NCBI GenBank assembly: GCA_026393755.1
Contig: JAPKZO010000018.1
Coordinates: 3,418-35,417, forward strand
Length of the DNA: 32,000 nucleotides
Reading direction: 5' to 3'
DNA from: Acidobacteriota bacterium
GTDB lineage: Bacteria > Acidobacteriota > Vicinamibacteria > Vicinamibacterales > JAKQTR01
Position 1 is the first letter of the stretch; every line of letters begins with the position of its first letter. Positions 80 to 13,663 of this stretch are shown here, piece after piece. Both the position numbers and the translations under genes were made by a program. Under the pieces are notes generated by a model. The model saw nothing but the letters and a program-made list of their open reading frames with translations. It had not been told where the DNA came from and made no database searches.

Positions 80-172
80 GCGGTGCGGAAATTCACTCCG
101 GGAGTAACGTTCCCGTTGTGGAGATCTGCCCCGCGGGTTGGCAGAGGTGTGACTGACACTGGAGGATCGAAG

Positions 173-3100
173 GTGCTCAAGCGAATTGCGGCGGCTGGTT
201 GCGTTCTCGCCCTCGTCATCACAGGTGCCGTCCAGGTCCGCGGCAGGACCGCCGTGGGGGCGCGGGCCCCGGAACTGGAACGGCTGGGGTCGTTGTTTGA
301 CCTGGCGCGGGGGGCAGTGCGCGACACGAACGCAGACGGCCTCGCCGACAGCGTCGTGGCCCGGGTGATCGTGCCCGCAACACCCGCGATTGAGGATATC
401 GAGGCCGCCACCAACATCGCGGGGCGTCTTGGTTTCGAGACGACGGCGATGACGCTGCCGCTCGTCGTGCGGGACGATCAAGTCGCCGACGCCAGCGCGA
501 TTGATCTTCCAATCTTCGTCGGGCGCGACAACGCGTTCGTGAAGAAACTGGCCGAGGCGGGCGCCATCGACCTCAAGGCGCTCAAGCCCGGACAGGGCCT
601 GGTCAGCGTGGTCCAGTCCCCAGGCGGCGGCCACGACGGCATCATCATCGTCGGTGGCGACGGCGCCGGAACGCTGGCGGCTGCCGTGGAACTGGCGGCG
701 CGGCTGCCTCGGCTGTGGACCATGTCAGGGGTGACACTGACGGGCATTGAACAGCAGGCGGCGCAGTACATGAAGGCCAGCGGCCTCGCCGTCTCGCGTG
801 CGGCCGTCGTCGCGATGGTGGTTGACAGCGACCGGCGCGGCATCGCCTCGGTCACAGTCAACCTGCACGTCAAAGGGACCGACGCGGCGCGCGCGGTCAA
901 GCTGCTCGAGGCGCTCGATCTCGCGCACCGGCGCGGGCAGCTGCCCGGCATGCTCAACTTCGCCGAAGCGGCGACCACCCTTGTCGCCGTGGTCGCCGAT
1001 GGCAAGACGGCGGGCCGGGCCTCCGTGCGCCGCTCCGGCCTCAATGGCCGCACGCTGACCCCACCGGTCGATCCTGAGGAATTCATGCCTGACCCCGCGG
1101 CCGCGTCCTCCGCAGGCGGCGGGCGCGGAGCCGGAGGTGGAGGTGCCGCGGGAGCGGCCGGAGCCGCAGCGCCCACTGGAACCTCGAGCGCGCAATCGGG
1201 AAGCGGGGCTGCCAGCGGCGCGGCGGCCGCGCCAGAGGGCGGCGGGGCAGGCGGTGGCGTCGCGGCAGTGCCGGTGACGGCCAAGTTATTCGATCTGTCA
1301 AACACGTATTCGAATGACGGCTGGTTCGGAGACGCGTTCGTCGATCTGATTCCCGACCGGACCGAAACCACGCTCGTGCTCGGCAACGCGCAGGACTCAC
1401 TGGGTGCGGCGCATATCGCGGCGCGCCTTGGCCTTGAATCAACGGGCATCAGTCTGCCAATCACCAAGACGGACGACAAGGTCAGGGATCCCGCTCGCGA
1501 GCCGAGTCCCATCCTGATCGGGCGCACGAACACATACGTGCAGCAGCTCGTGAAGATCGGCAGGGCGCGGCTCGACGACCTTCAGCCCGGCCAGGGCACG
1601 ATCCAGATCGTGCCCCGCGCCTTCGGCGTGGCAACGGCGACTGTCGTTGCCGGCGCCGATCAGGCCGGCACCGACGCCGCGAGTCTCTATCTGGCGCGAC
1701 GGGCGCCGTACTTGTGGGACATCGCTCGCGGCGCGTTTTCCTACGATGACCTGATCACCGAAGCGACTCGCTTTCTGGGCGGGAAGAGCGGCGCGGGGCA
1801 GGCTGCGCAGGCGGTCCAGGAGCTCGGGTCCCTTCTCGACGGTCTCAAGGGCAAGAAGGTCGAAACGCTGGACGCCAAGCTGTACCTGGAGAAGGGCGAC
1901 GCCGCGTTTGCGAAATACCTGGCCGGCCAGGCGACCCAGGCGCTCCCCGGAGCGAAGGTGAACGTGACCAGCCAGGGCGTCACCGATCCCGTGCCGGTCT
2001 TCGAGGACAAGCCGGAGATTCCGTGGGAGGTCGACGAGTTCTGGGCGAAGTTCAAGGCCGACGTGCTCCCCAAGGTCAAGGCCGGTTCGACCGTCGACCT
2101 CGAGGTCAGGCTCAGCGAGCCGCCCGAGATCCGCAAGTCCCTCGTGGAGCAGGCGCAAGCGGAGCTGACCAAGGCTGGGGCGGTCAAGCCTCGCGTCAAG
2201 GTGCTCTCGGCCTACAAGCAGGGCTATCTCTGGCTGACCGAACAGGTGATCCCCGAACTGAAGGGCAAGGGCGGGCGTTCGGTTCACATCAAGGTGCTGA
2301 CCCACAAGCCCGACTTCACCAAGAAGTACAAGTTTTACATGGTGCCGAGCCGCTGGCTCCAGGAACTGTTTCCCGTCGACGAGGTGTTCGAACGCGATCT
2401 CGGCATCCGGAAGGACGCGTTCACGATGGAACTGGTCGACGACCAGAAGGATATCTACGCGGTCGAGGTCGCAGATGGGGCCGGCAAGATCGTGTATCGC
2501 GGCACGTTCAACCCGAAGTTCGTCGAACGCGAGTACCTCGACAAGTTCCCGGGCTGGGCAAACGTCGAGGTGACCACCGGCTGGATCTCGGCCACGGTGA
2601 ACGGCCAGTCAGCCGTCGACGCGCGCATCGCGACTGATCCCGAACGGTTGTGGGACTACTACCAGGCGAAGGTTCTGCCGAAGGTGTACGACCACGTGAT
2701 GAAGGTGACGGCCGGCCGGCCCACCACCGACAAGCAACCCTTCTTCCGCGACCTCGACATCGAAGTGTGGATGAGCGAGCCGGACTTCCGGATTGGTGTC
2801 GACGAAGAACAGATTTCGTCGCTCGAGTCGCTCCACGAGGATCTCTACTTCGTCACGCTGGACTTCTTCAGCGCCATGGGCCGGACCATCACGCGGCAGC
2901 GGATTGGGGCGCCGGGGAAGATCCTGCCCATCATCCATCCGAGCCGTTCGGGCAAGCCCGGCTCGGCGCGAATTCTCTACGCGGCCAACGCGGCCACCGC
3001 CCCGCGGCTCGAGGTCACCTATAAGGAGAAGGACGGGGAGAAGCCGGTGTCGGTGACGCGCCCGCTCGGCCGGATCGACACGACCGCGCCCCAGGCGCTA

Positions 3101-4570
3101 CGGGCCGTCGTCCGCAACGATCGCGTGAGCGAAATCGAGCTGCAGGTCGAAGCCGGCAACGACCGGGAGGCGGCGCGCGCCGCTGACGCGCTCGACGGTC
3201 TCGCGCGTCTCCACGCCGCTGGCTTGTATCGCGAAGCGCTGTCGTTCGATCACGTGGACGGTGTCGCGATAGCGATCGGAATCAAGGAGATCCGCACTCG
3301 GCGCGTCATCAAGAACACCGGATCGACGCTGCCGTCGAACATCCGGACGGCGCAGCAGAAGCCGGCGCTGCCCGTGGTCACGTGGGACCATGTCATCAGT
3401 CCGGACGAAGCCGAGGACATCGTCAAGAAGCTCTCGGCCTACCCCGAAGTGAAGGCCTATCGGGTTGGCCAGTCGTACCGGGGCCGCGACATGTCTGTGA
3501 TGGAAGTCACGCTGCCGACGCCCAGCGAACTGGTCTCGGTGACGAAGTTGACGGCGTACAAGCCCACGATCTTCATGATGGGGCGGCAGCATGCCAACGA
3601 GGTGTCATCGACGAGCCACATCCTCCGGCTTGCTGAGCTGCTGGCGACCGATCCCAAGTACCGGGACATTCTCAAGAAGGTGAACGTCATCCTGGACCCG
3701 GTGATGAATCCGGATGGCGCGCAAATCGCGTTCGATCTGCAGAAGCTCACTCCGAATCACATGTTGCACGCCGGGCGCTACAGTGCGCTTGGCATGGACG
3801 TCACGTCGCGGCAGAACAACCTGCTGCCGGAAGCCGAGGTGGAGGGCCAGATCTGGCGCGAGTGGCTGCCCGACATCTACCTGAATCCCCACGGATACCC
3901 GTCGCACGAGTGGGTGCAGCAGTTCTCCGGCTACGTGTCGCCCCAGTTCCGCGCGTACTGGACGTCGCGGGGCTGGTACACGATGATCAGCGGCCTTCGC
4001 GACCCGCGGTACCCCGACATCCCGGAGGCGACCGCCGCGCTGCGGGAAGCGGTCGTTCGGGATGTGAGCGGCAATGCCGACGTGCGCGCCATGGATCTGC
4101 GCGCTCAGGCTCGCTACCTGCGCTGGGCGAACGGGTTCGGCACGCACGTCTACAACATTCAGGTGTACAAGGACACGACGATCTTCTTCAGCGATCCCGA
4201 ATCGGGCGAGTTGCGCGGAAGCCGCCGGGCGCCGGCCACGCCCCAGGCTGGTCAGAGCGCCCAGGGAGGAGGCCGCCGGGGAACCATGGGTTCGTTCCCG
4301 CAGGTCACGTTCAACAGCGGGATGACGGAAGCGCCGGACGAAACCGCCCAGGGCCCATGGTTGAACCTGGTGACCAAGGCCGGCTTCTCGTTCCTGATGG
4401 CGCACGTGACGTACCTGCAGGACGGACACTACAAGATCGAACGCATCGAAGAGGCCGGGCAGCGCGATGGCTCGACGCTGACCGTGCTGCGCGTCAGGCC
4501 AGTGATGCCTGGGCGGACTCCTGCCGTTGCGGGGGCCCCCAGAAAGGCCGCGCCGACCGACGCCAGGTAG
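173..4570 (+). CDS. Very large secreted M14-family zinc carboxypeptidase-like protein (about 1465 aa). The catalytic domain is at the extreme C-terminus, after a long N-terminal region of unknown function.
   Basis: The ORF track opens at GTG 83. GTG 173 has a strong GGAGGA Shine-Dalgarno (161-166) at 6-nt spacing and yields an N-terminal signal-like peptide, (M)LKRIAAAGCVLALVITGAVQ. M14 motifs: HANE zinc ligands (3590-3601), NPDG, NPHGYPSHEW (second His ligand region) and GMTEAPDE (catalytic Glu region). Confidence 0.8.
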   Translation: MLKRIAAAGCVLALVITGAVQVRGRTAVGARAPELERLGSLFDLARGAVRDTNADGLADSVVARVIVPATPAIEDIEAATNIAGRLGFETTAMTLPLVVRDDQVADASAIDLPIFVGRDNAFVKKLAEAGAIDLKALKPGQGLVSVVQSPGGGHDGIIIVGGDGAGTLAAAVELAARLPRLWTMSGVTLTGIEQQAAQYMKASGLAVSRAAVVAMVVDSDRRGIASVTVNLHVKGTDAARAVKLLEALDLAHRRGQLPGMLNFAEAATTLVAVVADGKTAGRASVRRSGLNGRTLTPPVDPEEFMPDPAAASSAGGGRGAGGGGAAGAAGAAAPTGTSSAQSGSGAASGAAAAPEGGGAGGGVAAVPVTAKLFDLSNTYSNDGWFGDAFVDLIPDRTETTLVLGNAQDSLGAAHIAARLGLESTGISLPITKTDDKVRDPAREPSPILIGRTNTYVQQLVKIGRARLDDLQPGQGTIQIVPRAFGVATATVVAGADQAGTDAASLYLARRAPYLWDIARGAFSYDDLITEATRFLGGKSGAGQAAQAVQELGSLLDGLKGKKVETLDAKLYLEKGDAAFAKYLAGQATQALPGAKVNVTSQGVTDPVPVFEDKPEIPWEVDEFWAKFKADVLPKVKAGSTVDLEVRLSEPPEIRKSLVEQAQAELTKAGAVKPRVKVLSAYKQGYLWLTEQVIPELKGKGGRSVHIKVLTHKPDFTKKYKFYMVPSRWLQELFPVDEVFERDLGIRKDAFTMELVDDQKDIYAVEVADGAGKIVYRGTFNPKFVEREYLDKFPGWANVEVTTGWISATVNGQSAVDARIATDPERLWDYYQAKVLPKVYDHVMKVTAGRPTTDKQPFFRDLDIEVWMSEPDFRIGVDEEQISSLESLHEDLYFVTLDFFSAMGRTITRQRIGAPGKILPIIHPSRSGKPGSARILYAANAATAPRLEVTYKEKDGEKPVSVTRPLGRIDTTAPQALRAVVRNDRVSEIELQVEAGNDREAARAADALDGLARLHAAGLYREALSFDHVDGVAIAIGIKEIRTRRVIKNTGSTLPSNIRTAQQKPALPVVTWDHVISPDEAEDIVKKLSAYPEVKAYRVGQSYRGRDMSVMEVTLPTPSELVSVTKLTAYKPTIFMMGRQHANEVSSTSHILRLAELLATDPKYRDILKKVNVILDPVMNPDGAQIAFDLQKLTPNHMLHAGRYSALGMDVTSRQNNLLPEAEVEGQIWREWLPDIYLNPHGYPSHEWVQQFSGYVSPQFRAYWTSRGWYTMISGLRDPRYPDIPEATAALREAVVRDVSGNADVRAMDLRAQARYLRWANGFGTHVYNIQVYKDTTIFFSDPESGELRGSRRAPATPQAGQSAQGGGRRGTMGSFPQVTFNSGMTEAPDETAQGPWLNLVTKAGFSFLMAHVTYLQDGHYKIERIEEAGQRDGSTLTVLRVRPVMPGRTPAVAGAPRKAAPTDAR
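293..1730 (+). repeat. Protein-level tandem duplication inside the M14 gene. Copy A is about 293-725 and copy B about 1286-1730. They are separated partly by a Gly/Ala/Ser-rich low-complexity linker (about 1083-1270).
   Basis: Both copies start with LFDL. Shared pattern: IAxRLGxExT..LP....DD.V.D......PI..GR.N..V..L...G...L..L.PGQG....V ... V.G.D.AGT.AA..LA.R.P.LW. Confidence 0.7.
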
Positions 4571-4630: not shown

Positions 4631-5416
4631 ATGGAACCAGCAGCCACCCGTCCGCGCATCGATTTCAACTGCGATATGGGCGAGAGCTTCGGCGCCTACA
4701 CGCTCGGGCTCGACGACCAGATCATCGCGTCGATCACTTCGGCCAACATCGCGTGCGGGTTCCACGCCGGCGATCCGGCGTGGATGCGGCGGACGGTCGA
4801 CGTGGCCGAACAGCATGGTGTCGGCGTGGGCGCACATCCCGGCTTTCCGGATCTGCGCGGGTTTGGCCGGCGGAACCTCGCCGCGTCGCCGAGTGAGGTC
4901 CGCGACGACCTGGTCTATCAGATTGGCGCGCTGACCGCGTTTACGCGCGATAAGCGCCTGCAGCACGTCAAGCCGCACGGCGCGCTCTACAACATGGCCG
5001 TCGAGAACGATGCGCTGGCGACCGCGATCTGCCAGGCGGTCGTCGAAGTCGATCCGCGCATGATTCTGGTGGTGTTGTCCGGATCGCGATGGATTGGGCT
5101 CGCCCAACGCCTGGGGCTGCGAGCCGCCCGCGAGGTCTTCGCTGATCGCGCCTTCAATGCCGATGGCACGCTGGTCCCGCGGTCGAAGCCGGGTTCGGTC
5201 CTGCACGACGCCCACGAAGTGATCGACCGCAGCCTGCGCCTGGTGACAGAAGGCAAGGTGGTCGCCATCACCGGCGAAGTCATCGAACTGCAGGCCGACA
5301 CGATCTGCCTGCACGGCGACACCCCCGGGGCCGTGCACCTGGCCGCCGCGCTCAGAGAGGCGTTCGAGCGCGCCGGGGTGGAACTCCTGCCCCTGGGCCG
5401 TCTGCTCGCCGCTTAG
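4631..5416 (+). CDS. pxpA: 5-oxoprolinase subunit A (LamB/YcsF family lactam hydrolase component)
   Basis: Strong resemblance by eye along the whole length to E. coli YbgL/PxpA: IDFNCDMGESFG, SANIACGFHAGDP, GAHPGFPD, HVKPHGALYN, EVFADRAFNADGTLVPRS, ICLHGDTPGAV. Confidence 0.9.
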   Translation: MEPAATRPRIDFNCDMGESFGAYTLGLDDQIIASITSANIACGFHAGDPAWMRRTVDVAEQHGVGVGAHPGFPDLRGFGRRNLAASPSEVRDDLVYQIGALTAFTRDKRLQHVKPHGALYNMAVENDALATAICQAVVEVDPRMILVVLSGSRWIGLAQRLGLRAAREVFADRAFNADGTLVPRSKPGSVLHDAHEVIDRSLRLVTEGKVVAITGEVIELQADTICLHGDTPGAVHLAAALREAFERAGVELLPLGRLLAA

Positions 5417-5419
5417 CTC

Positions 5420-6148
5420 ATGTACGACGGCCCCAGGTTCCTCACCGCCGGCGATCGCGCCGTGGTCATCGAGTACGGCGACTCCATCGACGAAGCCACC
5501 AGTCTCCGCGTCCGACGGCTTGCCGCCGCCCTCTCGCTGCGCCACGAGTCGGGCATCATCGAGATCGTGTCCACGTATCGATCGCTGATGGTGCACTACG
5601 ACCCGCTGCGGCTGCCACGAGCCCACGTGGACGCCATCGTGCTCGACGCGGAGCAGCACCTGGCCGACGTCACGCTGCCTCCGTCTCGTGTGTTCGACAT
5701 TCCCACCGTCTATGGCGGCCGCTACGGCCCGGATCTCGAAGATGTGGCCGCTTGGGCGGGAATTGCCGCCGACGAGGTCGTCGCGCTGCACTGCGGACGG
5801 GAGTACCTGGTCTACATGATGGGGTTCATGGCGGGCTTCCCGTATCTGGGAGGCCTGTCGCCACGGATCGCGATGCCGCGGCTTCCGAGCCCGCGTACGA
5901 AAGTGCCCACCGGATCGGTTGGGATTGCGCAGGAACAGACGGGCATCTATCCAACCGAGACACCTGGCGGGTGGCGGCTGATCGGCTGGACCCCGGTACG
6001 CATTTTCGACGCGGCCAACGATCCGCCGGTGTTGTTCGAGGCGGGAGACTACATTCGGTTCGTGCCGGCGACAAGCGAGCAGACGCAAGCCATCGCCCGG
6101 CAGATTGCGGCTGGTACATGGACGCCAACGGTGCGACACCGTGAGTGA
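5420..6148 (+). CDS. pxpB: 5-oxoprolinase subunit B (KipI / allophanate hydrolase subunit 1 family)
   Basis: Motifs matching YbgJ/KipI: PTVYGGRYGPDL, GFMAGFPYLGGL, PTGSVGIAQEQTGIYPTETPGGWRLIG. Starts 3 nt after the pxpA stop. Confidence 0.9.
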   Translation: MYDGPRFLTAGDRAVVIEYGDSIDEATSLRVRRLAAALSLRHESGIIEIVSTYRSLMVHYDPLRLPRAHVDAIVLDAEQHLADVTLPPSRVFDIPTVYGGRYGPDLEDVAAWAGIAADEVVALHCGREYLVYMMGFMAGFPYLGGLSPRIAMPRLPSPRTKVPTGSVGIAQEQTGIYPTETPGGWRLIGWTPVRIFDAANDPPVLFEAGDYIRFVPATSEQTQAIARQIAAGTWTPTVRHRE

Positions 6149-6155
6149 AGAGCGT

Positions 6156-7223
6156 ATGCGGACGATTGAGGTGCTCGAGGGGGGCTTCTTTACGACGGTC
6201 CAGGATCTCGGGCGCGACCAGTACCAGCGGTTCGGCGTGGCGGTGTCCGGCGCGATGGACAGCTTCGCGCTTCGCGCGGCTAATCGGCTCGTGGGGAACG
6301 CCGACACCGCCGCCGGCCTTGAAGTCACGATGCTCGGTCCAGAGGTGCGGTTTGCTCAAGCGGCCCGCGTGGCGGTGACGGGTGCTGATCTCGGCGCATG
6401 CGTGGATGGACGACCGATTCAGACGTGGCGCACGGTTGCCGTTCGCGCGGGATCGGTGCTGTCGTTTTCTGGCCAGCGCGACGGCATGCGGGCCTACCTC
6501 GCCGTGGACGGCGGGATCGATGTGCCAGTCGTGCTTGGCAGCCGCTCGACCTCCACCCGGACCGGGCTCGGCGGATTCGACGGGCGGCCGCTGCGTGCGG
6601 GAGACACGCTGCCGCTTGGCGAGCAACCGCCTGGGAAAGGCGCTCTCAGGCGTGCGATGCGAACTTCGGCCATTCCATCCTACGGCCACAGCCATCACGT
6701 GCGTGTCGTCCTTGGTCCGCAGGATGAGGCGTTTTCCGAGGAGGGACAGTTGACGTTCCTCACGGCCGAATACACGATGACGCCGCAGTCGGACCGCATT
6801 GGCTGCCGGTTCGACGGCCCCCGCGTCGCCCATCGCACGAACGCCGACATCGTGTCCGACGGCACAACGCTTGGCATCGTGCAGGTCAGCGGCGACGGCA
6901 TGCCGATTGTCCTGATGGCGGATCGGGGCACGACCGGCGGTTACACGAAGATTGCGACAGTCATTTCGGCGGACGTCTGGCGGCTCGCACAGGCTGCGCC
7001 CGGCGACCGCGTCCGCTTCGGCGCCGTCGATCTCGACCAGGCCTGCGCGCGGTTGCTCGAGATGGAAGCTGTGCTCGATGCGCTGGTGACGCCGGAACGG
7101 GCCAGGCCGGCAGGACCGGTTGAGGACGTGTACGACGAGGACGCTGGAAGCGAATTGGCCGCCGACGGGTTCGGCGAACTGGCCGACGCGCTCGAACAGA
7201 CGGGACTGGGGAGGGATCAATGA
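6156..7223 (+). CDS. pxpC: 5-oxoprolinase subunit C (KipA / allophanate hydrolase subunit 2 family)
   Basis: MRTIEVLEGGFFTTVQDLGR, then SGAMD, QSDRIGCRF, GIVQVSGDGMPIVLMADRGTTGGYTKIATVISAD. ATG 6156 is preferred over the track start 6105, which overlaps pxpB. 7-nt gap after the pxpB stop. Confidence 0.9.
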   Translation: MRTIEVLEGGFFTTVQDLGRDQYQRFGVAVSGAMDSFALRAANRLVGNADTAAGLEVTMLGPEVRFAQAARVAVTGADLGACVDGRPIQTWRTVAVRAGSVLSFSGQRDGMRAYLAVDGGIDVPVVLGSRSTSTRTGLGGFDGRPLRAGDTLPLGEQPPGKGALRRAMRTSAIPSYGHSHHVRVVLGPQDEAFSEEGQLTFLTAEYTMTPQSDRIGCRFDGPRVAHRTNADIVSDGTTLGIVQVSGDGMPIVLMADRGTTGGYTKIATVISADVWRLAQAAPGDRVRFGAVDLDQACARLLEMEAVLDALVTPERARPAGPVEDVYDEDAGSELAADGFGELADALEQTGLGRDQ

Positions 7224-8470
7224 CGACAGCGGTTGACGCGTCCGGCTGGTTCGGATGGTGGCGGGCCGGCACACCCGAAGGGCGGCGGGCACTGGTTGCG
7301 GGCGGCCTGGGCTGGATGCTCGACAGCTTCGACGTGATGCTCTATGCGCTTGTGCTGGCGACCCTCATCAAGGACCTCGGCATCAGCAAGGACACCGCGG
7401 GCCTGCTGGGCTCGATCACGCTGGTGGCCTCCGCAGTCGGGGGGCTGGTGTTCGGCATTGTCGCCGATCGATACGGGCGGACACGGTCCCTGATTGCCAG
7501 CATCCTCATCTATTCCGTGTTCACCGCCATGTGCGGTTTCTCGCAGACGGTGATGCAGTTGGCCGTCTTCCGCATCTGCCTCGGCCTCGGGATGGGCGGC
7601 GAATGGGCGAGCGGCGCCGCGCTGGTGTCGGAAACCTGGCCTGCCGAGTATCGAGGCAAGGCGCTCGGCTTCATGCAAAGCGCGTGGGCGATTGGCTACG
7701 CCGCCGCAGCCCTGGTGGTGGCCATCGTGATGCCCATCTGGGGATGGCGAGCCGTGTTCTTCGTCGGTGTGCTGCCCGCCCTGCTCACCATCTGGGTGCA
7801 GAAGCGGGTTGCCGAACCGGCCATGTGGAACGAGCGCCGAGGCCGCGCGGCCGCCTCGCGCGCGGGTCTCAGTGACATCTTCAAGGGCGATCTGCTGCGC
7901 CTCACGGTGCCGGTCACGCTCATGAACGCCTGCACGATGTTCGCGTGGTGGGGGTTCAATCAATGGATCCCGGCATACCTGTCGCTTCCGGTGGCGGACG
8001 GCGGCATCGGCCTCAGCACGCGCGTGATGTCCGGATTCATCATCGCGATGCAGGTCGGGATGTGGTTCGGCTACGTGTCGTTCGGGTTCATCAGCGATGC
8101 CATCGGACGCAAGCGTGCATACGTGATCTACGTGCTCATGGCTGCGGTACTGCTGCTCGGCTACTCGGTGACGCGGACGCCGGCGGTGCTCCTCGTGCTC
8201 GGCCCGGTCACGGCGTTTTTTGCGACGGGCTATTTCACCGGGTTCGGGGCCGTCACCGCCGAGATCTATCCGACCGAGATTCGCGCAACCGCCCAGGGCT
8301 TCACCTATAACATCGGGCGCCTGGGCAGCGCCGTGGCGCCGTACGCGGTCGGGTCCCTTGCTGCGGGCCGTGGATTCGGCGTCGCGTTTTCCGTCGCTGC
8401 CGTGGCCTTCGTGCTCGCGGCAGTCGCCTGGATCTGGATCCCGGAGACCAAGGGCCGCGCCCTGGCCTGA
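7220..8470 (+). CDS. MFS transporter (12-TM metabolite:cation symporter type); substrate unknown
   Basis: Hydrophobic multi-helix protein with an MFS-like N-terminus GWMLDSFDVMLYALVL and a DRYGR loop motif. Its start codon overlaps the pxpC stop (ATGA, 7220-7223). Confidence 0.85.
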   Translation: MTTAVDASGWFGWWRAGTPEGRRALVAGGLGWMLDSFDVMLYALVLATLIKDLGISKDTAGLLGSITLVASAVGGLVFGIVADRYGRTRSLIASILIYSVFTAMCGFSQTVMQLAVFRICLGLGMGGEWASGAALVSETWPAEYRGKALGFMQSAWAIGYAAAALVVAIVMPIWGWRAVFFVGVLPALLTIWVQKRVAEPAMWNERRGRAAASRAGLSDIFKGDLLRLTVPVTLMNACTMFAWWGFNQWIPAYLSLPVADGGIGLSTRVMSGFIIAMQVGMWFGYVSFGFISDAIGRKRAYVIYVLMAAVLLLGYSVTRTPAVLLVLGPVTAFFATGYFTGFGAVTAEIYPTEIRATAQGFTYNIGRLGSAVAPYAVGSLAAGRGFGVAFSVAAVAFVLAAVAWIWIPETKGRALA

Positions 8471-8505: not shown

Positions 8506-9939
8506 ATGCGGGTCGTCCTGCTCTCGACGTATGAACTCGGGCGCCAGCCCTTCGGTCTCGCCTCGCCTGCGGCGTGGTTGAGGCAGGCCGGCGCAGAGGT
8601 CGTCGTGCAGGATCTGTCGCGCCAGCGACTCGACGAGGACGTCGCGCGTGGCGCGGACGTGGTTGCGTTCTACCTCCCCATGCACACGGCCACGCGACTT
8701 GCGCTGCCGGTCATCGATCGCGTCCGAGCACTCAATCCGGGAGCACGACTGTGCGCGTTTGGGCTGTACGCGCCGCCCAATGCGGGGCTGTTGCGCGCGC
8801 ATGGCATCGACGCGACGTACGGGGCGGAAGTCGAAGCGGACCTGGTCGAGTACGCGCGTGGAAACCACGGGACGGAACGCGTCGAGGGCGCGACAGACGC
8901 TACGGCAGGCCCGGCGCCTGACTGTCGCAGCCTGGCGCGACCGATCGCACGGCTCAATTTTCTCGTGCCTGATCGAGCCGGCCTCCCTGGGCCGTCCTGC
9001 TATGCGTCGTTGCAGCGCGATGATTCGTCTGTTGTCGCCGGGTACACCGAGGCCAGCCGGGGTTGCAAGTATTTCTGCCGCCACTGCCCGGTGGTGCCGG
9101 TGTACCGCGGACAGATTCGCACGGTGCCCACCGGGGTGGTGCTCGCCGACATCCGGAATCAGGTGGCTTCCGGCGCGGCGCACATCACCTTCGGGGACCC
9201 CGATTTCTTCAACGGGCCGGCGCACGCTCGGCGTACCGTCACGGCGTTGCACGATGAGTTTCCTCACCTGACCTACGACGTCACGATCAAGATTTCTCAT
9301 CTGCTGCGGCACCAGTCACTGCTCGGGCTGCTGCGAGACACGGGCTGTCTGTTTGTGACGACGGCGGTCGAGTCGATCGACGACGGGATCCTCGCCACGC
9401 TGGACAAAGGGCACACAGCTGCCGACGTCGAGCGCACGGTGTCCCTGTGCCGTCAGCACGCACTGGCACTGGCGCCGACGTTTGTGCCGTTTACGCCGTG
9501 GACGTCGCTGGACGGATACATAGAGCTGCTGTCGGCCATACGGCGTCTTGATCTGGTCGAGCACGTGGCGCCGATTCAGCTCGGTATCCGCCTGCTCGTT
9601 TCGAACGGATCACGACTCCTCGACCTGCCCGACATCCGCACGCTCGTGGGACCGTTCGATCCCGTGGCGCTCGCGTACCCGTGGGCCCACCGCGACGCCC
9701 GCGTCGACGCGCTGCAGAAAGTGATCATCGCAACCGTCGGATGCCATGCCGGGGCTGGCAGAGGCGAGGTGTTCGACCGCGTCTGGCGGCTGGCCTGCGA
9801 ATTCGCCAACGCGGATCCGGACGCCGGCCGAGCGCCAGTTACGCTGGATGGGGACTATCGACGAACCTCGGTGCCGTACCTCAACGAGCCCTGGTACTGT
9901 TGAGCGGAACCCACCGAAGGGCAGGTGGCTCTTCTTTGA
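8506..9939 (+). CDS. Radical SAM enzyme with an N-terminal B12-binding-like domain. Probable selenoprotein: the in-frame UGA at 9901-9903 is read as Sec, giving a C-terminal ...EPWYC-U-AEP-TEGQVALL tail.
   Basis: CxxxCxxC cluster motif GCKYFCRHCP (Cys codons between 9064 and 9087). Rossmann-like N-terminus MRVVLLSTYELGRQP. The track ORF stops at TGA 9901, but the next codons are GCG GAA CCC (A-E-P) and the next stop is TGA 9937-9939. From memory, the C-U-A-E-P motif matches the family named CUAEP/CCAEP-tail radical SAM (seleno)protein. A SECIS-like hairpin follows the UGA. Confidence 0.8.
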
Positions 9940-9945
9940 TGGGTT
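9908..9945 (+). other. Candidate bacterial SECIS stem-loop directly 3' of the UGA codon
   Basis: Outer stem AACCCA (9908-9913) pairs with UGGGUU (9940-9945). Inner stem GAAGGG (9916-9921) pairs with CUCUUC (9929-9934, one G-U). The 7-nt apical loop CAGGUGG (9922-9928) places a GGU about 24-26 nt after the U of UGA. An alternative smaller hairpin is CCACC (9911-9915) with GGUGG (9924-9928). Folded by eye only. Confidence 0.45.
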
Positions 9946-9949
9946 ACGG

Positions 9950-11302
9950 ATGAAACGGGTCTTGCTGCTTGCAACAACGACCGGCTATCAGACACGCTCG
10001 TTCGGCGACGCCGCGTCGGCGTTGGGTGTCGAGCTGATATTCGGGCTCGACCGATGCCGTGGGCTCGAGGACCCGTGGGGCGATCACTCGCTGGCGGTTC
10101 GGTTCTACGACGACCCCCGCTCGGTCGCGGCCATCGCGTCGGCGTCGCAGGATGGCCCCATCTCTGGCATCCTCGCTCTTGGCGACCAGCCCACGGTGCT
10201 GGCCGCCCGCGCGGCGGAACTGTTGCACCTGCCGTTCCATTCGCCTGCCGCCGCGAGAACCAGCCGAAACAAGCTCGACAGCCGCAATGCCCTGATGGCA
10301 GCAGGTCTGCGCGTGCCGTGGTTTGCGGCGGCCGACATTGATGACGACCACGATCGACTGGCGTCGCGCGTGCCGTACCCGTCGGTCATCAAGCCGCTCG
10401 CGCTCTCGGGCAGCCGGGGTGTGATTCGCGTGGACAACCCGCACGCCTTTTCCACCGCGTTCCGAAGAGTACGTCAGATTCTGCGGGCGCCAGACATCAA
10501 GACGATGAAGGATCCGGCGCTTCGGCAGGTGCTGATCGAAGGCTATATCCCTGGGGTGGAGTTCGCTGTTGAAGGCCTGATGCATCATGGGGTGTTTGAG
10601 GCGCTTGCGCTCTTCGACAAACCCGATCCGCTGGATGGCCCCTTCTTCGAAGAGACGATCTATGTAACTCCGTCCGCCCACGACGCCGCCATCCAGGAAG
10701 CCGTCCTCACGGCGGTCGCCGCGGCTACCGCTGCGATCGGACTGTCGCACGGGCCGGTGCACGCGGAATGCCGTGCGAACGCGGATGGCGTCTTCGTCCT
10801 CGAGGTGGCGGCACGCCCGATTGGCGGACTGTGCGCACGGGCGCTGCGATTCGATGTCCCTCGAGCCGGGATCGATCCCGGAACGCGCTCAGGACCCATC
10901 GGCTCGCGAGAGACTGGACTGCTTGCTCAGGGCAGGCAGACAGAGGGTCACACGATATCGCTGGAAGAGTTGCTGCTGCGTCACGCGCTTGGTGAAGATG
11001 TCCGAGGCTGCCGTCGGGAAGCCTGCGCGTCGGGCGTGATGATGATGCCCATTCCGAACGCCGGCGTGTACCGTGGCGTGAGAGGCGTCGCTGAGGCTCG
11101 TGCCGTCGCGCTTGTGGAAGACGTCATCATCACGGCCAAGCCCGGCCAGCGCCTGGTGCCGCTGCCGGAAGGCGCGAGCTACCTGGGCTTCATGTTTGCG
11201 ACGGCCGGCCTCGGCGAGGACGTCGTGGCCGCGCTGCGAGCGGCGCACGGCAGACTGCACTTTGACATCGATCGCGAGCTGCCGCTGGCGCCAAGCGGAT
11301 GA
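9950..11302 (+). CDS. ATP-grasp domain protein (about 450 aa) resembling L-amino-acid ligase / carboxylate-amine ligase enzymes
   Basis: Pre-ATP-grasp N-terminus MKRVLLLATTTGYQTRSF, SRNKLDSRNALMAAGLRVP, YPSVIKPLALSGSRGV, LIEGYIPGVEFAVEG, HGPVHAECR...VFVLEVAARPIGG. ATG 9950 is chosen because the track start 9746 lies inside the radical SAM coding region. Starts 10 nt after the extended radical SAM stop. Confidence 0.8.
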   Translation: MKRVLLLATTTGYQTRSFGDAASALGVELIFGLDRCRGLEDPWGDHSLAVRFYDDPRSVAAIASASQDGPISGILALGDQPTVLAARAAELLHLPFHSPAAARTSRNKLDSRNALMAAGLRVPWFAAADIDDDHDRLASRVPYPSVIKPLALSGSRGVIRVDNPHAFSTAFRRVRQILRAPDIKTMKDPALRQVLIEGYIPGVEFAVEGLMHHGVFEALALFDKPDPLDGPFFEETIYVTPSAHDAAIQEAVLTAVAAATAAIGLSHGPVHAECRANADGVFVLEVAARPIGGLCARALRFDVPRAGIDPGTRSGPIGSRETGLLAQGRQTEGHTISLEELLLRHALGEDVRGCRREACASGVMMMPIPNAGVYRGVRGVAEARAVALVEDVIITAKPGQRLVPLPEGASYLGFMFATAGLGEDVVAALRAAHGRLHFDIDRELPLAPSG

Positions 11303-11363: not shown

Positions 11364-11639
11364 CTATTTCTGCCGCTGGGGCACGTACTCTGGCGGCAGG
11401 GCAGAGTTGTCTCCGAAGAAGAACTCCTCCATCTGCCTCGCCACCAGTTCCTGCGCTTCCTTTTGAAACGGCAGCAGCCGGTACTCGTTGAGGATCATCT
11501 TCATCCGCTCTTCCCACATCTTCCAGGCTTCGGCCGACACGTTCTCGAAGATGCGCTGGCCAAGCTCACCAGGCCACGGGGCCGCATCCAGGCCAGGCAG
11601 TGGCTTCCCCAACTTGACGCATGTGACCGTCCGGCTCAT
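11364..11639 (-). CDS. yggX: Fe(2+)-trafficking / oxidative-damage protection protein YggX family (91 aa)
   Basis: MSRTVTCVKLGKPLPGLDAAPWPGELGQRIFENVSAEAWKMWEERMKMILNEYRL aligns by eye with E. coli YggX (PGELGKRIY..SKEAW..W...QTMLINE). GAGGAGA Shine-Dalgarno upstream of ATG 11639. The track start 11774 overlaps the upstream gene. Confidence 0.85.
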   Translation of the reverse strand: MSRTVTCVKLGKPLPGLDAAPWPGELGQRIFENVSAEAWKMWEERMKMILNEYRLLPFQKEAQELVARQMEEFFFGDNSALPPEYVPQRQK

Positions 11640-11647
11640 ATCTCTCC

Positions 11648-13663
11648 TCACATTTCCCCGAGCTTCTCCACTTGCACCCGTGCATCGTTGAAGCAAGCGC
11701 CCCCGCCGATATCCGACAACGTGTCTGGCGACAGGGCGTTGGCGGTGGACCCGTTCTCCGTGCTCCGGCTCCACAGCCCCTTGGGAAGTGACACGGTGCC
11801 GGGCCGGACAATCGGCGAAACGCTGACGAGGCAGCGCACTTCGCCGAGGGCGTTGAACACGCGAATCCTGTCCCCGTCCGCGATCTCCCGGTGCCGCGCA
11901 TCTTCTGGATGGAGCGAGAGCTCGGCAGGGCGATCGTTCAGCTCACCGAGCGTCGAACTGATCGTCTTCTCGGTCGACGGCGAAATCATCGCGAGCGGAA
12001 ACGGGTCGGTCACGGGATCGTCCTGATAGGCGTAGAGCCCGAGCGGCGCTTCGCGATCCAGTCGCTCCGGAAACAGGTCGATCCTGGCGTCGGGTGTGCG
12101 CGGGAAAACGTCGACAAACTGCACCGGCGCGAAACCGCACGGTGGCACCGGCTGTCCCTGATGCTTCAGCGCGCCGCTGATCGACTCGGGAAGTTCGTCG
12201 AGAATCTTCATCATCATCTCGACGTCGGTGACCGGGTCGCCCTCCTGCGACAGACCCAGGCGTTGTTCCAGATCAGCAAAGACCTCGACGTTCGGACGGG
12301 CGTCGCCGACCGCATCGATGACAGGCTGCGTCATCTGCAGGTTGATCGGGCCATACGCCCTCGCCAGATCGTAGGCTTCGAGAAACGTGGTGGCTGGCAG
12401 CACGACATCCGCGTACATCGCCGAGTCGGTCATCACCTGGTCGAAGACGACCGTCGTCAGATCGTCGCGCAGCAGTCCGCGCCGCACGCGATTCTGGTCG
12501 GGCATGGTCGCCAGCGGGTTGCAGTTGTAGACGAACAACACCGTCACCGGCGGTTGAGGACTGTCGGTAAGGACGCGCCCGAGGTGGTTCATGTTGATGA
12601 CGCGGGTGGACGGCGCATCCGCCCCAATCCAGGTGTTGGTCAGTCCCCACGAGCCCGAATTGCTCATCGAGTAGCCGCCGCCGCGCACGCCGAACTTTCC
12701 TGCCACGGCCGGCAACGCGAGAATCGCCATCGCGGCGTTGCCGCCATTCCTGTTCCGCTCGAGGCCCCAGCCGCACCGAATCAGGGCCGGCGACGATTCG
12801 GCATACATCGCGGCGAAGCGACGCAGGTCATTGGCCGGCACGCCCGCGACCTCTGCGGCACGCTGCAACGTCCACGGCGCCGCCCGTTCCCTCAGGCGGT
12901 CGACCCCGGTGGCGTGTTCATCGAGGAACGCCGTGTCGGCAAGGCCGCCTTCAAACAGGTACCGATGCAGCGCCAGCGCGACCGCGACATCGGTGCCTGG
13001 CCGGACCGGCAGGTGCAGATCGGAGAGGCGCGCCAGTTGGGTGTTGCGGGGATCGATCACGACCAGCCCGGCGCCGTTGCGCTGTGCCTCCCGGATGTGG
13101 GGAACCAGGTGAATGGCGGACGCAGACGGGTTCGCGCCCCACACGACAATGAGGCGGGCATGAGCGTAGTCCGCGTAGGTCACCGACGGCATCTTGCCGT
13201 AGAGCGCCTGGTTGGCCGCGCCCGTGGTCGACGCGCAGACCGTGCGGTCGAGGCGCGAGGCACCAAAGCGCCGGAACAGCCGCATGTCGGTCGTATCCTG
13301 CGTCACGAGCCCGTTCGACCCTCCGTAGTAGAACGGCAGGACCGACTCGGCGCCATGCCGATCTCTGGCCTCGATCATCTTCTGCGCGACGTGCTCCAGG
13401 GCTTCGTCCCACTCGACCCACCGGAACTGACCAGCACCCTTCGGGCCCGTGCGAATCCCCGGCCGCAGCAGGCGATCCCGGCCGTAGACGCGGCTGGCAA
13501 ACTGGCGGACTTTGGCGCAGATGAAGCCGTGCGTCACCGGGTGTTCGTGACTGCCGTCGAGCTTGCTGAGCCGGCCATCCTCGATCGTCGCAGTCATGCT
13601 GCACGAGTCGGGGCAGTCGAGCGGGCACGCCGTCCTGACGCTATGAGTGTGTCTCGGGCTCAT
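11648..13663 (-). CDS. Molybdopterin (bis-MGD) oxidoreductase, MopB superfamily, with N-terminal 4Fe-4S motif; substrate unknown
   Basis: N-terminal CPLDCPDSCSM...GFICAK cysteine cluster. Typical MopB blocks: VVWGANP, IDPR.T, and a C-terminal molybdopterin dinucleotide-binding barrel (LSLHPEDA..R.I.DGD.IRVFN..G). No in-frame stop. Confidence 0.85.
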   Translation of the reverse strand: MSPRHTHSVRTACPLDCPDSCSMTATIEDGRLSKLDGSHEHPVTHGFICAKVRQFASRVYGRDRLLRPGIRTGPKGAGQFRWVEWDEALEHVAQKMIEARDRHGAESVLPFYYGGSNGLVTQDTTDMRLFRRFGASRLDRTVCASTTGAANQALYGKMPSVTYADYAHARLIVVWGANPSASAIHLVPHIREAQRNGAGLVVIDPRNTQLARLSDLHLPVRPGTDVAVALALHRYLFEGGLADTAFLDEHATGVDRLRERAAPWTLQRAAEVAGVPANDLRRFAAMYAESSPALIRCGWGLERNRNGGNAAMAILALPAVAGKFGVRGGGYSMSNSGSWGLTNTWIGADAPSTRVINMNHLGRVLTDSPQPPVTVLFVYNCNPLATMPDQNRVRRGLLRDDLTTVVFDQVMTDSAMYADVVLPATTFLEAYDLARAYGPINLQMTQPVIDAVGDARPNVEVFADLEQRLGLSQEGDPVTDVEMMMKILDELPESISGALKHQGQPVPPCGFAPVQFVDVFPRTPDARIDLFPERLDREAPLGLYAYQDDPVTDPFPLAMISPSTEKTISSTLGELNDRPAELSLHPEDARHREIADGDRIRVFNALGEVRCLVSVSPIVRPGTVSLPKGLWSRSTENGSTANALSPDTLSDIGGGACFNDARVQVEKLGEM

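Follow-up and report, generated by a model that had tools for sequence, protein, structure and literature searches.

The in-frame TGA at positions 9901-9903 of the 32,000-nt stretch of DNA analysed here (the window), which ORF calling takes as the end of a radical SAM enzyme gene, almost certainly encodes selenocysteine (Sec). We consider it about 90% probable that positions 8506 to 9939 of the forward strand encode, in 477 codons plus a stop, a full-length CUAEP-tail radical SAM selenoprotein in which the UGA at codon 466 is recoded through a SECIS hairpin. The layout described in the original prediction was found in the sequence at every point. The ORF of 8506-9903 ends as ..EPWYC-TGA, with TGT (Cys465) at 9898-9900, so that Cys465 and Sec466 would form a C-U dyad (9898-9903, forward strand). 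The same frame runs on as AEPTEGQVALL through the codons GCG GAA CCC ACC GAA GGG CAG GTG GCT CTT CTT (9904-9936) to a second TGA at 9937-9939, which makes 9904-9939 the translated tail with its true stop. The downstream ATP-grasp gene starts with the ATG at 9950, 10 nt past this extended stop. TGA is the usual stop codon of the window, ending 12 of its 20 other genes, and codon reassignment is thus not indicated.

The window gene and its protein are already known. A family with the tail named in the original prediction exists as NF040546, "CUAEP/CCAEP-tail radical SAM (seleno)protein", an NCBI-curated, uncharacterised family mentioned by Haft (bioRxiv 10.1101/2022.07.06.499078). Within the literature searched, a single relevant paper used the term CUAEP. 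The window protein itself is deposited as the 465-aa truncation MCX6544042.1, already under the NF040546 family name. Since the family is curated and the protein deposited under its name, the observation is correct but not new, and the recoding is not a discovery because the name of the NCBI model already says "(seleno)protein". What can be added is context for an uncharacterised family, namely Sec as the majority state, a SECIS element in the last codons, an amino-acid ligase as partner and kinship with ArsL, which together make its function testable in a cultured organism.

Against NF040546, the read-through protein (U written as C) scored 601.5 bits (cutoff 500) and aligned to positions 1-467 of the 468 in the profile. 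The 465-aa truncation scored 580.5 bits with a match ending at profile position 457, so the tail contributed 21 bits. The C-terminal C-[U/C]-A-E-P signature is encoded by TGT TGA GCG GAA CCC (9898-9912), and the same column and tail were found in 78 related loci. With its CxxxCxxC motif, its EPWYC-U-AEP tail and its length all shared with the family, the window protein shows no essential difference from other members. The radical SAM cluster motif CxxxCxxC (Cys187, Cys191 and Cys194; 9064-9087, forward strand) is invariant in our alignment A1, and Pfam PF04055 matched the window protein with 34.7 bits (cutoff 29.5). A further family-invariant cysteine, Cys281, lies in the motif DTGCLFV (codon 9346-9348, forward strand); it was invariant among 30 and among 40 aligned family members, and is also present in Thermomicrobium roseum.

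Evidence for selenocysteine insertion at codon 466

Column 466 was read in 78 related species-level genomes, where it holds TGA in 66 and TGC or TGT in 12, which makes Sec the majority state among the closest relatives of the window. TGA at the same column in other genomes and Cys-containing orthologues ending in CCAEP had both been proposed as checks. The latter were also found: 47 of the best 120 database homologues run on as WYCCAEP.., with tails such as CCAEPTEGQAALL, while the other 73 stop at ..WYC. The Cys forms fall into at least three clades, each nested among Sec forms. Stem-loops 3' of stop codons can promote read-through in general, and the UGA could in principle be passed by hairpin-stimulated near-cognate decoding (as Trp, Cys or Arg) or by insertion of Cys via tRNA-Sec. 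The absence of Sec machinery genes from the window leaves some room for such decoding. However, a column that holds only UGA or Cys codons is the classic Sec/Cys signature, the geometry of the hairpin and its loop G(G/U)U are those of bacterial SECIS elements, and the family has been curated at NCBI as one of selenoproteins. We therefore regard read-through without Sec as very unlikely.

The codons that follow the TGA behave as coding sequence. AEP is kept after the stop, and its codons in the 66 TGA genomes have an entropy of 0.06 bit at positions 1 and 2 versus 1.33 bit at position 3; variation almost confined to third positions indicates that these codons are translated. The closest relative of the window differs in the tail by two synonymous changes only, and the two sequences diverge completely past the second stop. 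Ten of the 11 tail residues of the window match the CCAEPTEGQAALL tails of Cys homologues. At the UGA-type loci, among the tblastn matches listed, the ATP-grasp gene always starts at least 36 nt past the UGA, a distance equal to the length of the tail; at a Cys-type locus with an 8-codon tail (L044), it starts 24 nt after the Cys codon. These data bear directly on whether the UGA could be a genuine stop, with the protein ending at Cys465 and the downstream conservation reflecting an untranslated RNA element, e.g. a hairpin with a regulatory effect on the translation or stability of the ATP-grasp gene. The deposited annotation does terminate at Cys465, TGA is the common stop codon in the genome, the hairpin precedes the ATP-grasp start by 16 nt, and Sec machinery was not seen in the window or the related loci. 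Nevertheless, the codon periodicity past the UGA, the in-frame translation of the same tail in the Cys-codon homologues, the alignment of the curated NF040546 profile through the tail and the room left for it by the ATP-grasp starts make a genuine stop hardly tenable. An assembly or sequencing error, or a pseudogene in which TGC or TGT was mutated to or misread as TGA, might be suspected in a metagenome-assembled genome but has a negligible probability, given that 66 independent genomes share this TGA, among them that of the cultured strain T. roseum DSM 5159, on its finished megaplasmid, and that an identical protein was independently assembled from run SRR20698638.

In the recoding model, the bacterial SECIS hairpin within the last codons would direct decoding of the UGA by recruiting SelB-GTP-Sec-tRNA(Sec) to the ribosome, by analogy with fdhF of E. 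coli. Ribosomes losing to RF2 would release the 465-residue form, which is the product reported by ORF callers. For the window organism, we infer both dependence on SelB and the actual insertion of selenium. Neither selA, selB, selD nor tRNA-Sec was found within the 32-kb window, which holds no tRNA gene of any kind. A SelD search, with an E. coli query sequence 98.8% identical to the real one, gave no homologue in the window or in 80 related loci, and T. roseum was absent from the 40 listed of 168 SelD matches and from the ten most frequent organism names. The 60 related loci scanned for tRNA genes contained only tRNA-Arg and tRNA-Val, with no tRNA-Sec. With Sec at codon 466, the true gene product would be 12 residues longer than the deposited one. 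The same truncation at the UGA affects the 73 database homologues that stop at ..WYC, and is shared by the RefSeq entry WP_012643191.1 from T. roseum DSM 5159, whose TGA-type gene (TRD_RS12835) would, with read-through, encode ...SWFC-U-AEPLEDP.... Expression or structural studies based on the truncated form would thus miss the likely catalytic dyad.

The probable SECIS hairpin

The candidate SECIS element, supported by folding, covariation and a covariance model, is an apical hairpin at 9916-9934 of the forward strand, with a 7-bp stem (9916-9922/9928-9934) and the loop AGGUG (9923-9927). It is placed 19 nt after the UGA, inside the last 11 codons. ViennaRNA gave an energy of -19.2 kcal/mol for 9901-9950 (z = -2.1) and of -9.5 kcal/mol for the 26-nt hairpin segment alone. 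Published criteria for bacterial SECIS elements (PMC13188914) are a loop of 3-9 nt with a stem of 4-16 bp, a G at one or both of the first two loop positions, a spacing of 16-37 nt from the UGA to the apical loop, and a minimum free energy (MFE) of -7.5 kcal/mol or lower. The window hairpin lies within all four (5-nt loop and 7-bp stem, early loop G, 19 nt, -9.5 kcal/mol), as do those of 55 of the 66 relatives when a contiguous stem is required.

Among the 66 genomes, loop base G24 is invariant, while A23 and U26 are conserved in at least 90%. Compensatory changes were observed at pairs 17-33 (CG 28, AU 20, GC 10), 18-32 (AU 30, GC 19, GU 10) and 20-30 (AU 40, GC 8). The stem cells were paired in 84% of cases in the TGA genes versus 46-53% in slid-register controls, and none of 500 shuffles matched the covariation score. 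The Cys-type genes, at 38% paired, were at background. We also used a covariance model made from 65 other genomes, with the window left out; its sole match in the window was 9901-9940 (54.8 bits, E 2.3e-16), the next best scoring 8.5 bits, and it gave the Cys-type genes at most 15.9 bits. The hairpin covaries in TGA genes and is absent from Cys genes; it is maintained by selection and specific to the UGA-containing genes.

The original prediction had drawn a two-part 12-bp stem with a 7-nt apical loop, CAGGUGG, and attributed to it the geometry of a bacterial SECIS. The geometry agrees with the published criteria, and the upper helix (9916-9921/9929-9934) can be drawn as proposed, with one G-U pair, and covaries. 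Its loop was redrawn, as ViennaRNA adds the pair C9922-G9928 to give the 7-bp stem and the 5-nt loop AGGUG. The lower helix was not retained as a conserved feature. Its 3' half (9940-9945, forward strand) is a perfect 6-bp complement of 9908-9913, and the centroid fold of 9901-9950 forms it completely, with the MFE fold lacking the A9913-U9940 pair. Among the 66 relatives, however, at least 4 bp could form in 45%, versus 49% when 3' flanks were swapped between genomes.

Like the fdhF-type SECIS of E. coli, the window element stands directly past the UGA within the coding region and has G as its second loop base, followed by G/U and then U. It differs in being located in the last 11 codons of its gene and in having no conserved lower helix. 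This location means that the stem constrains the amino acids of the tail, which co-vary among relatives (TEGQVAL, TAEQVAL, TRDQLVP). Rfam returned nothing relevant for the whole window at the gathering threshold or for 9850-10000 at E values up to 10; that collection has no useful models of bacterial SECIS elements.

Gene neighbourhood

Directly downstream of the radical SAM gene, at 9950-11302 of the forward strand, lies its conserved partner, a gene for an ATP-grasp enzyme of the L-amino-acid-ligase type. The product scored above the cutoffs of the Pfam families ATP-grasp_4 (99.3 bits), LAL_C2 (53.6 bits) and ATPgrasp_N (30.4 bits), and by sequence its best solved structure is the L-amino acid ligase BL00235 (3vot, E 5e-32); it reached no equivalog cutoff in NCBIfam. 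In 49 of 64 loci, this ligase gene comes next after the radical SAM gene, in the same orientation. At the loci that lack it, the genes found downstream show no relationship among themselves, indicating that there is no alternative partner. Following the ligase gene in the window is a convergent gene (11364-11639, reverse strand) for a YggX-type oxidative damage protection/Fe(2+)-trafficking protein (NF003817, 117.9 bits, cutoff 74; Pfam Iron_traffic), located 8 nt after a Mo-oxidoreductase gene. A YggX-type gene lies within 3.2 kb in 47 of the 64 loci and is thus often beside the cassette, though the linkage is uncertain. The enzyme and the ligase, perhaps together with the YggX-type protein, may represent a widespread cassette of soil bacteria (Acidobacteriota, Methylomirabilota, Chloroflexota and Thermomicrobia).

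Transporters were considered as conserved partners and set aside as lineage synteny: an upstream POT-family permease was found at 12 to 22 loci and a sodium:solute symporter at eight, while the MFS gene of the window recurred at only one other locus. Of the genes upstream in the window, pxpABC are common only to one further locus (L007), with pxpA alone shared with the closest relative.

Kinship with ArsL and the possible role of the Cys-Sec tail

The second-best family for the window protein was ArsL (NF040542), with 247 bits over residues 4-404, below the cutoff of 450, and ArsL is the closest characterised relative of the CUAEP-tail enzyme. It forms a C-As bond in arsinothricin biosynthesis by cleaving SAM to MTA and a 3-amino-3-carboxypropyl species and transferring this group to As(III), the acceptor, which is bound by the RCCLKC tail at its C-terminus. 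Compared by sequence, the two families share the canonical CxxxCxxC motif, and in both the C-terminus is a short, Cys-rich tail. They differ in that the window tail is YC-U-AEPTEGQVALL instead of RCCLKC (the B. cereus protein ends in KRCCLKC), and in the additional invariant Cys281 of the CUAEP-tail family; at the corresponding motif, as read by eye from the two sequences, Val is present in the RCCLKC-tail (ArsL-family) protein of B. cereus. They also differ in their surroundings, as ars genes are absent near 80 CUAEP-tail loci and no ArsM-type methyltransferase partner was seen. The closest solved folds were radical SAM enzymes with an N-terminal Rossmann-like domain, led by AprD4 (TM 0.70) and followed by MgmA, TsrM and OxsB; a sequence search of the PDB turned up neither a close structure nor an entry for ArsL. 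An AlphaFold2 model of a Cys-type homologue (P0034) gave the tail a pLDDT of 56-70, consistent with its being flexible.

Our best guess as to function, though one more likely wrong than right, is that the CUAEP-tail enzyme works like ArsL and passes its product to the ligase. It would cleave SAM at the S-C(gamma) bond, a regiochemistry that is not readable from sequence, and transfer its 3-amino-3-carboxypropyl group to an acceptor that the flexible Cys-Sec tail holds or relays. The conserved L-amino-acid ligase encoded downstream would then take the gamma-substituted 2-aminobutyrate formed in this way as its substrate. Arsenic was considered as the substrate because of the relationship with ArsL, and was rejected because no ars genes occur near any of the 80 loci: homologues of ArsR, Acr3, ArsC, ArsD and MIP were found neither there nor in the window. 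A more specific and more doubtful proposal is that the enzyme of the cassette carries out an ArsL-type transfer onto a soft acceptor bound by Cys281, Cys465 and Sec466, where the part of Cys281 as third ligand is one that we infer. Given the lack of arsenic genes nearby, this acceptor would be a non-arsenic species, for example one of selenium, sulfur, tellurium or antimony. The ligase would then build the product, an amino acid resembling methionine or glutamate, into a dipeptide. If true, this would be a second case of non-canonical carbon-heteroatom bond formation by a radical SAM enzyme and the first to depend on selenocysteine.

Mammalian thioredoxin reductase, a flavoprotein, carries a C-terminal Gly-Cys-Sec-Gly redox tail. 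The Cys-Sec dyad of the CUAEP-tail enzyme could likewise be a redox swinging arm, forming a selenenylsulfide that would resolve an intermediate through the donation of electrons or of a hydrogen atom, in place of a substrate-binding site like the ArsL tail. This alternative concerns the role of the tail, not the recoding, and, like the ArsL-type model, we judge it unlikely while giving it serious weight. Thioredoxin reductase has the same arrangement, with Cys and Sec adjacent in a flexible C-terminal tail; the model gives the tail low confidence, and genes for arsenic or other metalloids are absent from the neighbourhood. In addition, Sec serves overwhelmingly at redox-active sites (PMC1794560). 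On the other hand, the Cys-rich tail of the only characterised relative binds As(III) and has no redox role, and the dyad stands 11 residues from the C-terminus instead of being penultimate. The likeness to thioredoxin reductase, a vicinal Cys-Sec on a C-terminal extension whose flexibility is taken from the model, is analogous at most, as the folds are unrelated and the position of the dyad differs.

The CU motifs known elsewhere also weigh against a redox arm. They are rare, occurring in MerT-family transporters, some redoxin-domain proteins, SAO-locus proteins and HgcA, and for the SAO-locus and HgcA CU proteins an interaction with heavy metals has been suggested (Haft, 10.1101/2022.07.06.499078). 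No mercury or organometal genes were found in the neighbourhood, and HgcA, the MerB-like SAO-locus proteins, the MerT variants and KCU-star are unrelated in sequence to the window protein, sharing only the rare Cys-Sec dipeptide with it. Returning to the ArsL-like reading, the RCCLKC-tail (ArsL-family) proteins of Bacillus and Priestia have about 32% identity to the window protein, and their genes on plasmids of these two genera have an ATP-grasp gene nearby as well.

Decoding of the in-frame UGA

The 465-codon ORF of the radical SAM gene (8506-9903, forward strand) ends in ...YLNEPWYC, where the Cys codon TGT (9898-9900) is followed by TGA (9901-9903). In the same frame, the codons GCG GAA CCC ACC GAA GGG CAG GTG GCT CTT CTT specify a read-through tail, AEPTEGQVALL, up to a second TGA at 9937-9939, and the ATG of the downstream gene lies at 9950. 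On re-reading the sequence, we found the ORF end, both TGA codons and the tail codons exactly as in the original prediction, which took the first UGA for selenocysteine (Sec) and assigned the protein to a family with CUAEP or CCAEP tails. This family exists as NF040546, "CUAEP/CCAEP-tail radical SAM (seleno)protein" (NCBIfam, curated cutoff of 500 bits). In a profile search using Cys in place of Sec, the protein read through to the second TGA scored 601.5 bits and aligned with positions 1 to 467 of the 468 in the profile, tail included. The 465-residue form scored 580.5 bits with an alignment ending at profile position 457, so the tail is worth 21 bits. The selenoprotein reading is not new, as the family is already curated as a (seleno)protein, and the window protein is already deposited under the CUAEP family name in truncated form. 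In the literature searched, the family is limited to a single sentence of Haft's preprint, which presents it as an uncharacterised protein bearing the rare CU motif (10.1101/2022.07.06.499078).

Five comparative lines agree in saying, at the sequence level, that UGA 9901-9903 is decoded. Among the best 120 database homologues, 73 stop at ..EPWYC and 47 go on as ..EPWYCCAEP.., the Cys orthologues that had been expected. A tail common among these 47, CCAEPTEGQAALL, matches the read-through tail of the window at 10 of 11 positions. Scanning one genome per species, we obtained 80 loci, mainly from Acidobacteriota with some from Methylomirabilota, Chloroflexota and others. The codon after EPWYC was TGA in 66 loci and TGC or TGT in 12, confirming that TGA recurs at this column in other genomes. 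The frame after TGA reads AEPxxxQxAL in most loci, with a stop 11 codons past the TGA in most of them and longer tails in about a dozen. The anticipated conservation of AEP beyond the stop was also found: over the 66 TGA sequences (window included), the mean entropy of the AEP codons was 0.06 bit at positions 1 and 2, which are near-invariant, and 1.33 bit at the free third position. Such codon periodicity points to selection on the translated peptide and not on an RNA element alone. Compared with the closest relative (locus L001), the tail of the window differs by two synonymous changes only, whereas the sequence beyond the second stop is wholly divergent. Neighbour-joining placed the Cys forms (TGC or TGT in place of TGA) in at least three clades nested among the Sec forms, so the two states have been interchanged repeatedly. 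Of the 20 remaining genes of the window, 12 have TGA as their stop, so UGA is not recoded genome-wide. One Sec-type locus, L055, nests within a Cys clade.

A conserved hairpin behind the UGA

The finding is real and the selenocysteine interpretation is supported; we put at about 90% the likelihood that TGA 9901-9903 encodes Sec with the help of a SECIS element at 9916-9934. A two-part stem had been proposed behind the UGA, and both helices can form in the window RNA. An extra pair found with ViennaRNA (C9922-G9928) extends the upper stem to 7 bp, closing the loop AGGUG. Folded as a whole, 9901-9950 has a free energy of -19.2 kcal/mol (z = -2.1 relative to dinucleotide-shuffled sequences); the hairpin segment by itself has -9.5 kcal/mol. 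The bacterial SECIS consensus comprises a loop of 3-9 nt on a stem of 4-16 bp, G at loop position 1 or 2, a spacing of 16-37 nt and an MFE of -7.5 kcal/mol or lower (PMC13188914, Fig. 2 legend). The window hairpin, with a spacing of 19 nt, agrees with all four criteria, as do 55 of 66 relatives when the stem is read strictly as contiguous.

All 66 TGA-type sequences could be aligned gap-free over the 40 nt from the UGA onward. Columns 16-22/28-34 (window 9916-9922/9928-9934) held standard pairs in 84% of cells, as opposed to 46-53% when the 3' partner was shifted by 1 to 3 columns, and the observed covariation score was reached by none of 500 column shuffles. Compensatory changes were seen at pairs 17-33 (CG 28, AU 20, GC 10), 18-32 (AU 30, GC 19, GU 10) and 20-30 (AU 40, GC 8). 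In the loop, G24 was invariant and A23 and U26 were at least 90% conserved. Since the stem sits within the last codons, the tail amino acids co-vary as well (for example TEGQVAL, TAEQVAL, TRDQLVP and TTGQLAP). Among the 12 genes with a Cys codon, only 38% of cells in these columns were paired, equal to their shuffled background, so the hairpin is tied to the UGA. Of the two proposed helices, the upper one is within the published criteria and covaries. The lower helix (9908-9913/9940-9945) is not supported, a lower helix of at least 4 bp being found in 45% of genomes versus 49% with 3' flanks exchanged between genomes.

A covariance model built from 65 other genomes, with the window left out, was searched against both strands of the window. 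It returned one significant match (9901-9940, 54.8 bits, E 2.3e-16), the runner-up scoring 8.5 bits, and reached 15.9 bits at most at the homologous site of Cys-type genes. In the Cys-type (TGC) locus L015, a 7-bp hairpin, GACCAGC-UGAC-GCUGGUC, persists close to where the SECIS would lie (3001-3040; 12.4 bits with the covariance model), possibly left over from a recent change of Sec to Cys.

Selenium insertion in the organism of the window is what we infer. Neither tRNA nor sel genes were found in the 32-kb window, SelD homologues were absent from the 80 related loci and the window, and no tRNA-Sec was detected in the 60 loci scanned. Read-through of the UGA without Sec is a formal and very improbable alternative. 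Sec insertion could be tested directly in a cultured strain, Thermomicrobium roseum DSM 5159, whose megaplasmid (NC_011961.1; locus L082, 8935-10440) encodes the family member WP_012643191.1. Its RefSeq CDS likewise terminates at an in-frame TGA, past which the sequence reads AEPLEDP.. and has a hairpin, GGACCC-GUC-GGGUCC, at +18 to +32. There, the neighbours of the radical SAM gene encode a PLP aminotransferase and an MFS transporter rather than an ATP-grasp enzyme.

The enzyme and its relation to ArsL

The protein has the canonical radical SAM motif C187-x3-C191-x2-C194, and Cys281 (motif DTGCLFV; codon 9346-9348, forward strand) is a further invariant Cys of the CUAEP family. An AlphaFold2 model of P0034, a Cys-type homologue, was confident overall (pLDDT 90) and combined a Rossmann-like domain at the N-terminus with a radical SAM barrel and a C-terminal region. 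The last ~35 residues were modelled with low confidence (pLDDT 56-70), and we read this tail as flexible. The closest solved folds were AprD4, MgmA, TsrM and OxsB; a sequence search found no close structure.

The second-best family model was that of ArsL (NF040542, RCCLKC-tail), which matched residues 4-404 with 247 bits and did not reach its cutoff of 450. ArsL produces methylthioadenosine and a 3-amino-3-carboxypropyl species, the latter joined to As(III), and its C-terminal RCCLKC cysteines bind arsenic and are needed for product formation (10.1101/2024.02.01.577332; 10.64898/2026.04.29.721666). By analogy, the Cys-Sec tail would hold or relay the acceptor, possibly with Cys281, which could be a third soft ligand beside the Cys-Sec dyad. 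The corresponding motif of the Bacillus cereus RCCLKC-tail (ArsL-family) protein has Val (two sequences compared by eye). Alternatively, the tail could be a redox arm like that of thioredoxin reductase. Under the acceptor reading, arsenic itself is unlikely, because no homologues of ArsR, Acr3, ArsC, ArsD or aquaglyceroporin were found within 10 kb in the 80 loci or the window. The plasmid clusters around the RCCLKC-tail (ArsL-family) genes of B. cereus pBFR_2 (L083, 1444-9143) and Priestia pB2.1 (L084, 3635-10137) include ArsR and an aquaporin, together with a GTP-binding protein and a PiT transporter.

The ligase partner and other neighbours

An L-amino-acid-ligase-type ATP-grasp gene (9950-11302, forward strand; Pfam ATP-grasp_4, LAL_C2, ATPgrasp_N) follows the radical SAM gene, the closest solved relative of its product being ligase BL00235 (3vot, E 5e-32). 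Of the 64 loci with enough downstream DNA, 49 have this partner immediately after the radical SAM gene in the same orientation, among them all 12 Cys-type loci. In the tblastn matches listed for UGA-type loci, its start is never less than 36 nt past the UGA, a distance equal to the tail length. Ribosomes terminating at the UGA of the window would stop 46 nt short of the ATP-grasp start codon, versus within 10 nt upon Sec insertion; conceivably, selenium supply could thereby adjust how translation of the ligase gene is coupled to that of the radical SAM gene. An ATP-grasp gene also occurs 3-4 kb upstream of the RCCLKC-tail gene in the B. cereus and Priestia clusters (24% identity between the B. 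cereus and window proteins, E 4e-16), suggesting that this partner may be common to both sister families. This tentatively suggests that the ArsL and CUAEP clusters share a logic, the ligation of an amino-acid product. The function of this widespread, Sec-dominated ArsL relative and its ligase partner is of moderate interest.

A YggX-type oxidative damage protection/Fe(2+)-trafficking gene (11364-11639, reverse strand, 91 aa) has homologues no more than 3.2 kb from the radical SAM gene in 47 of 64 loci, mostly convergent. In the window it starts 8 nt past the stop of a molybdopterin oxidoreductase gene, making its link to the radical SAM-ligase cassette uncertain. The oxidoreductase gene (11648-13663, reverse strand, 671 aa) is convergent to the cassette, contains no in-frame UGA and holds a position conserved in 21 related loci; its product reached no NCBIfam cutoff (best Fdh-alpha, 250 bits versus 666). 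Genes upstream of the radical SAM gene differ by lineage. In the window, these are three genes for 5-oxoprolinase subunits (pxpA, pxpB, pxpC) and an MFS transporter gene (4631-8470, forward strand), separated by short gaps or overlaps (ATGA at 7220-7223 between pxpC and the MFS gene), and they may be co-transcribed with the radical SAM gene. Only L007 has this arrangement in common with the window, and L001 has pxpA alone. Further upstream, 83-4570 (forward strand) encodes a 1495-residue protein with S-layer-like and M14 zinc carboxypeptidase domains, which bears no relation to the Sec finding.
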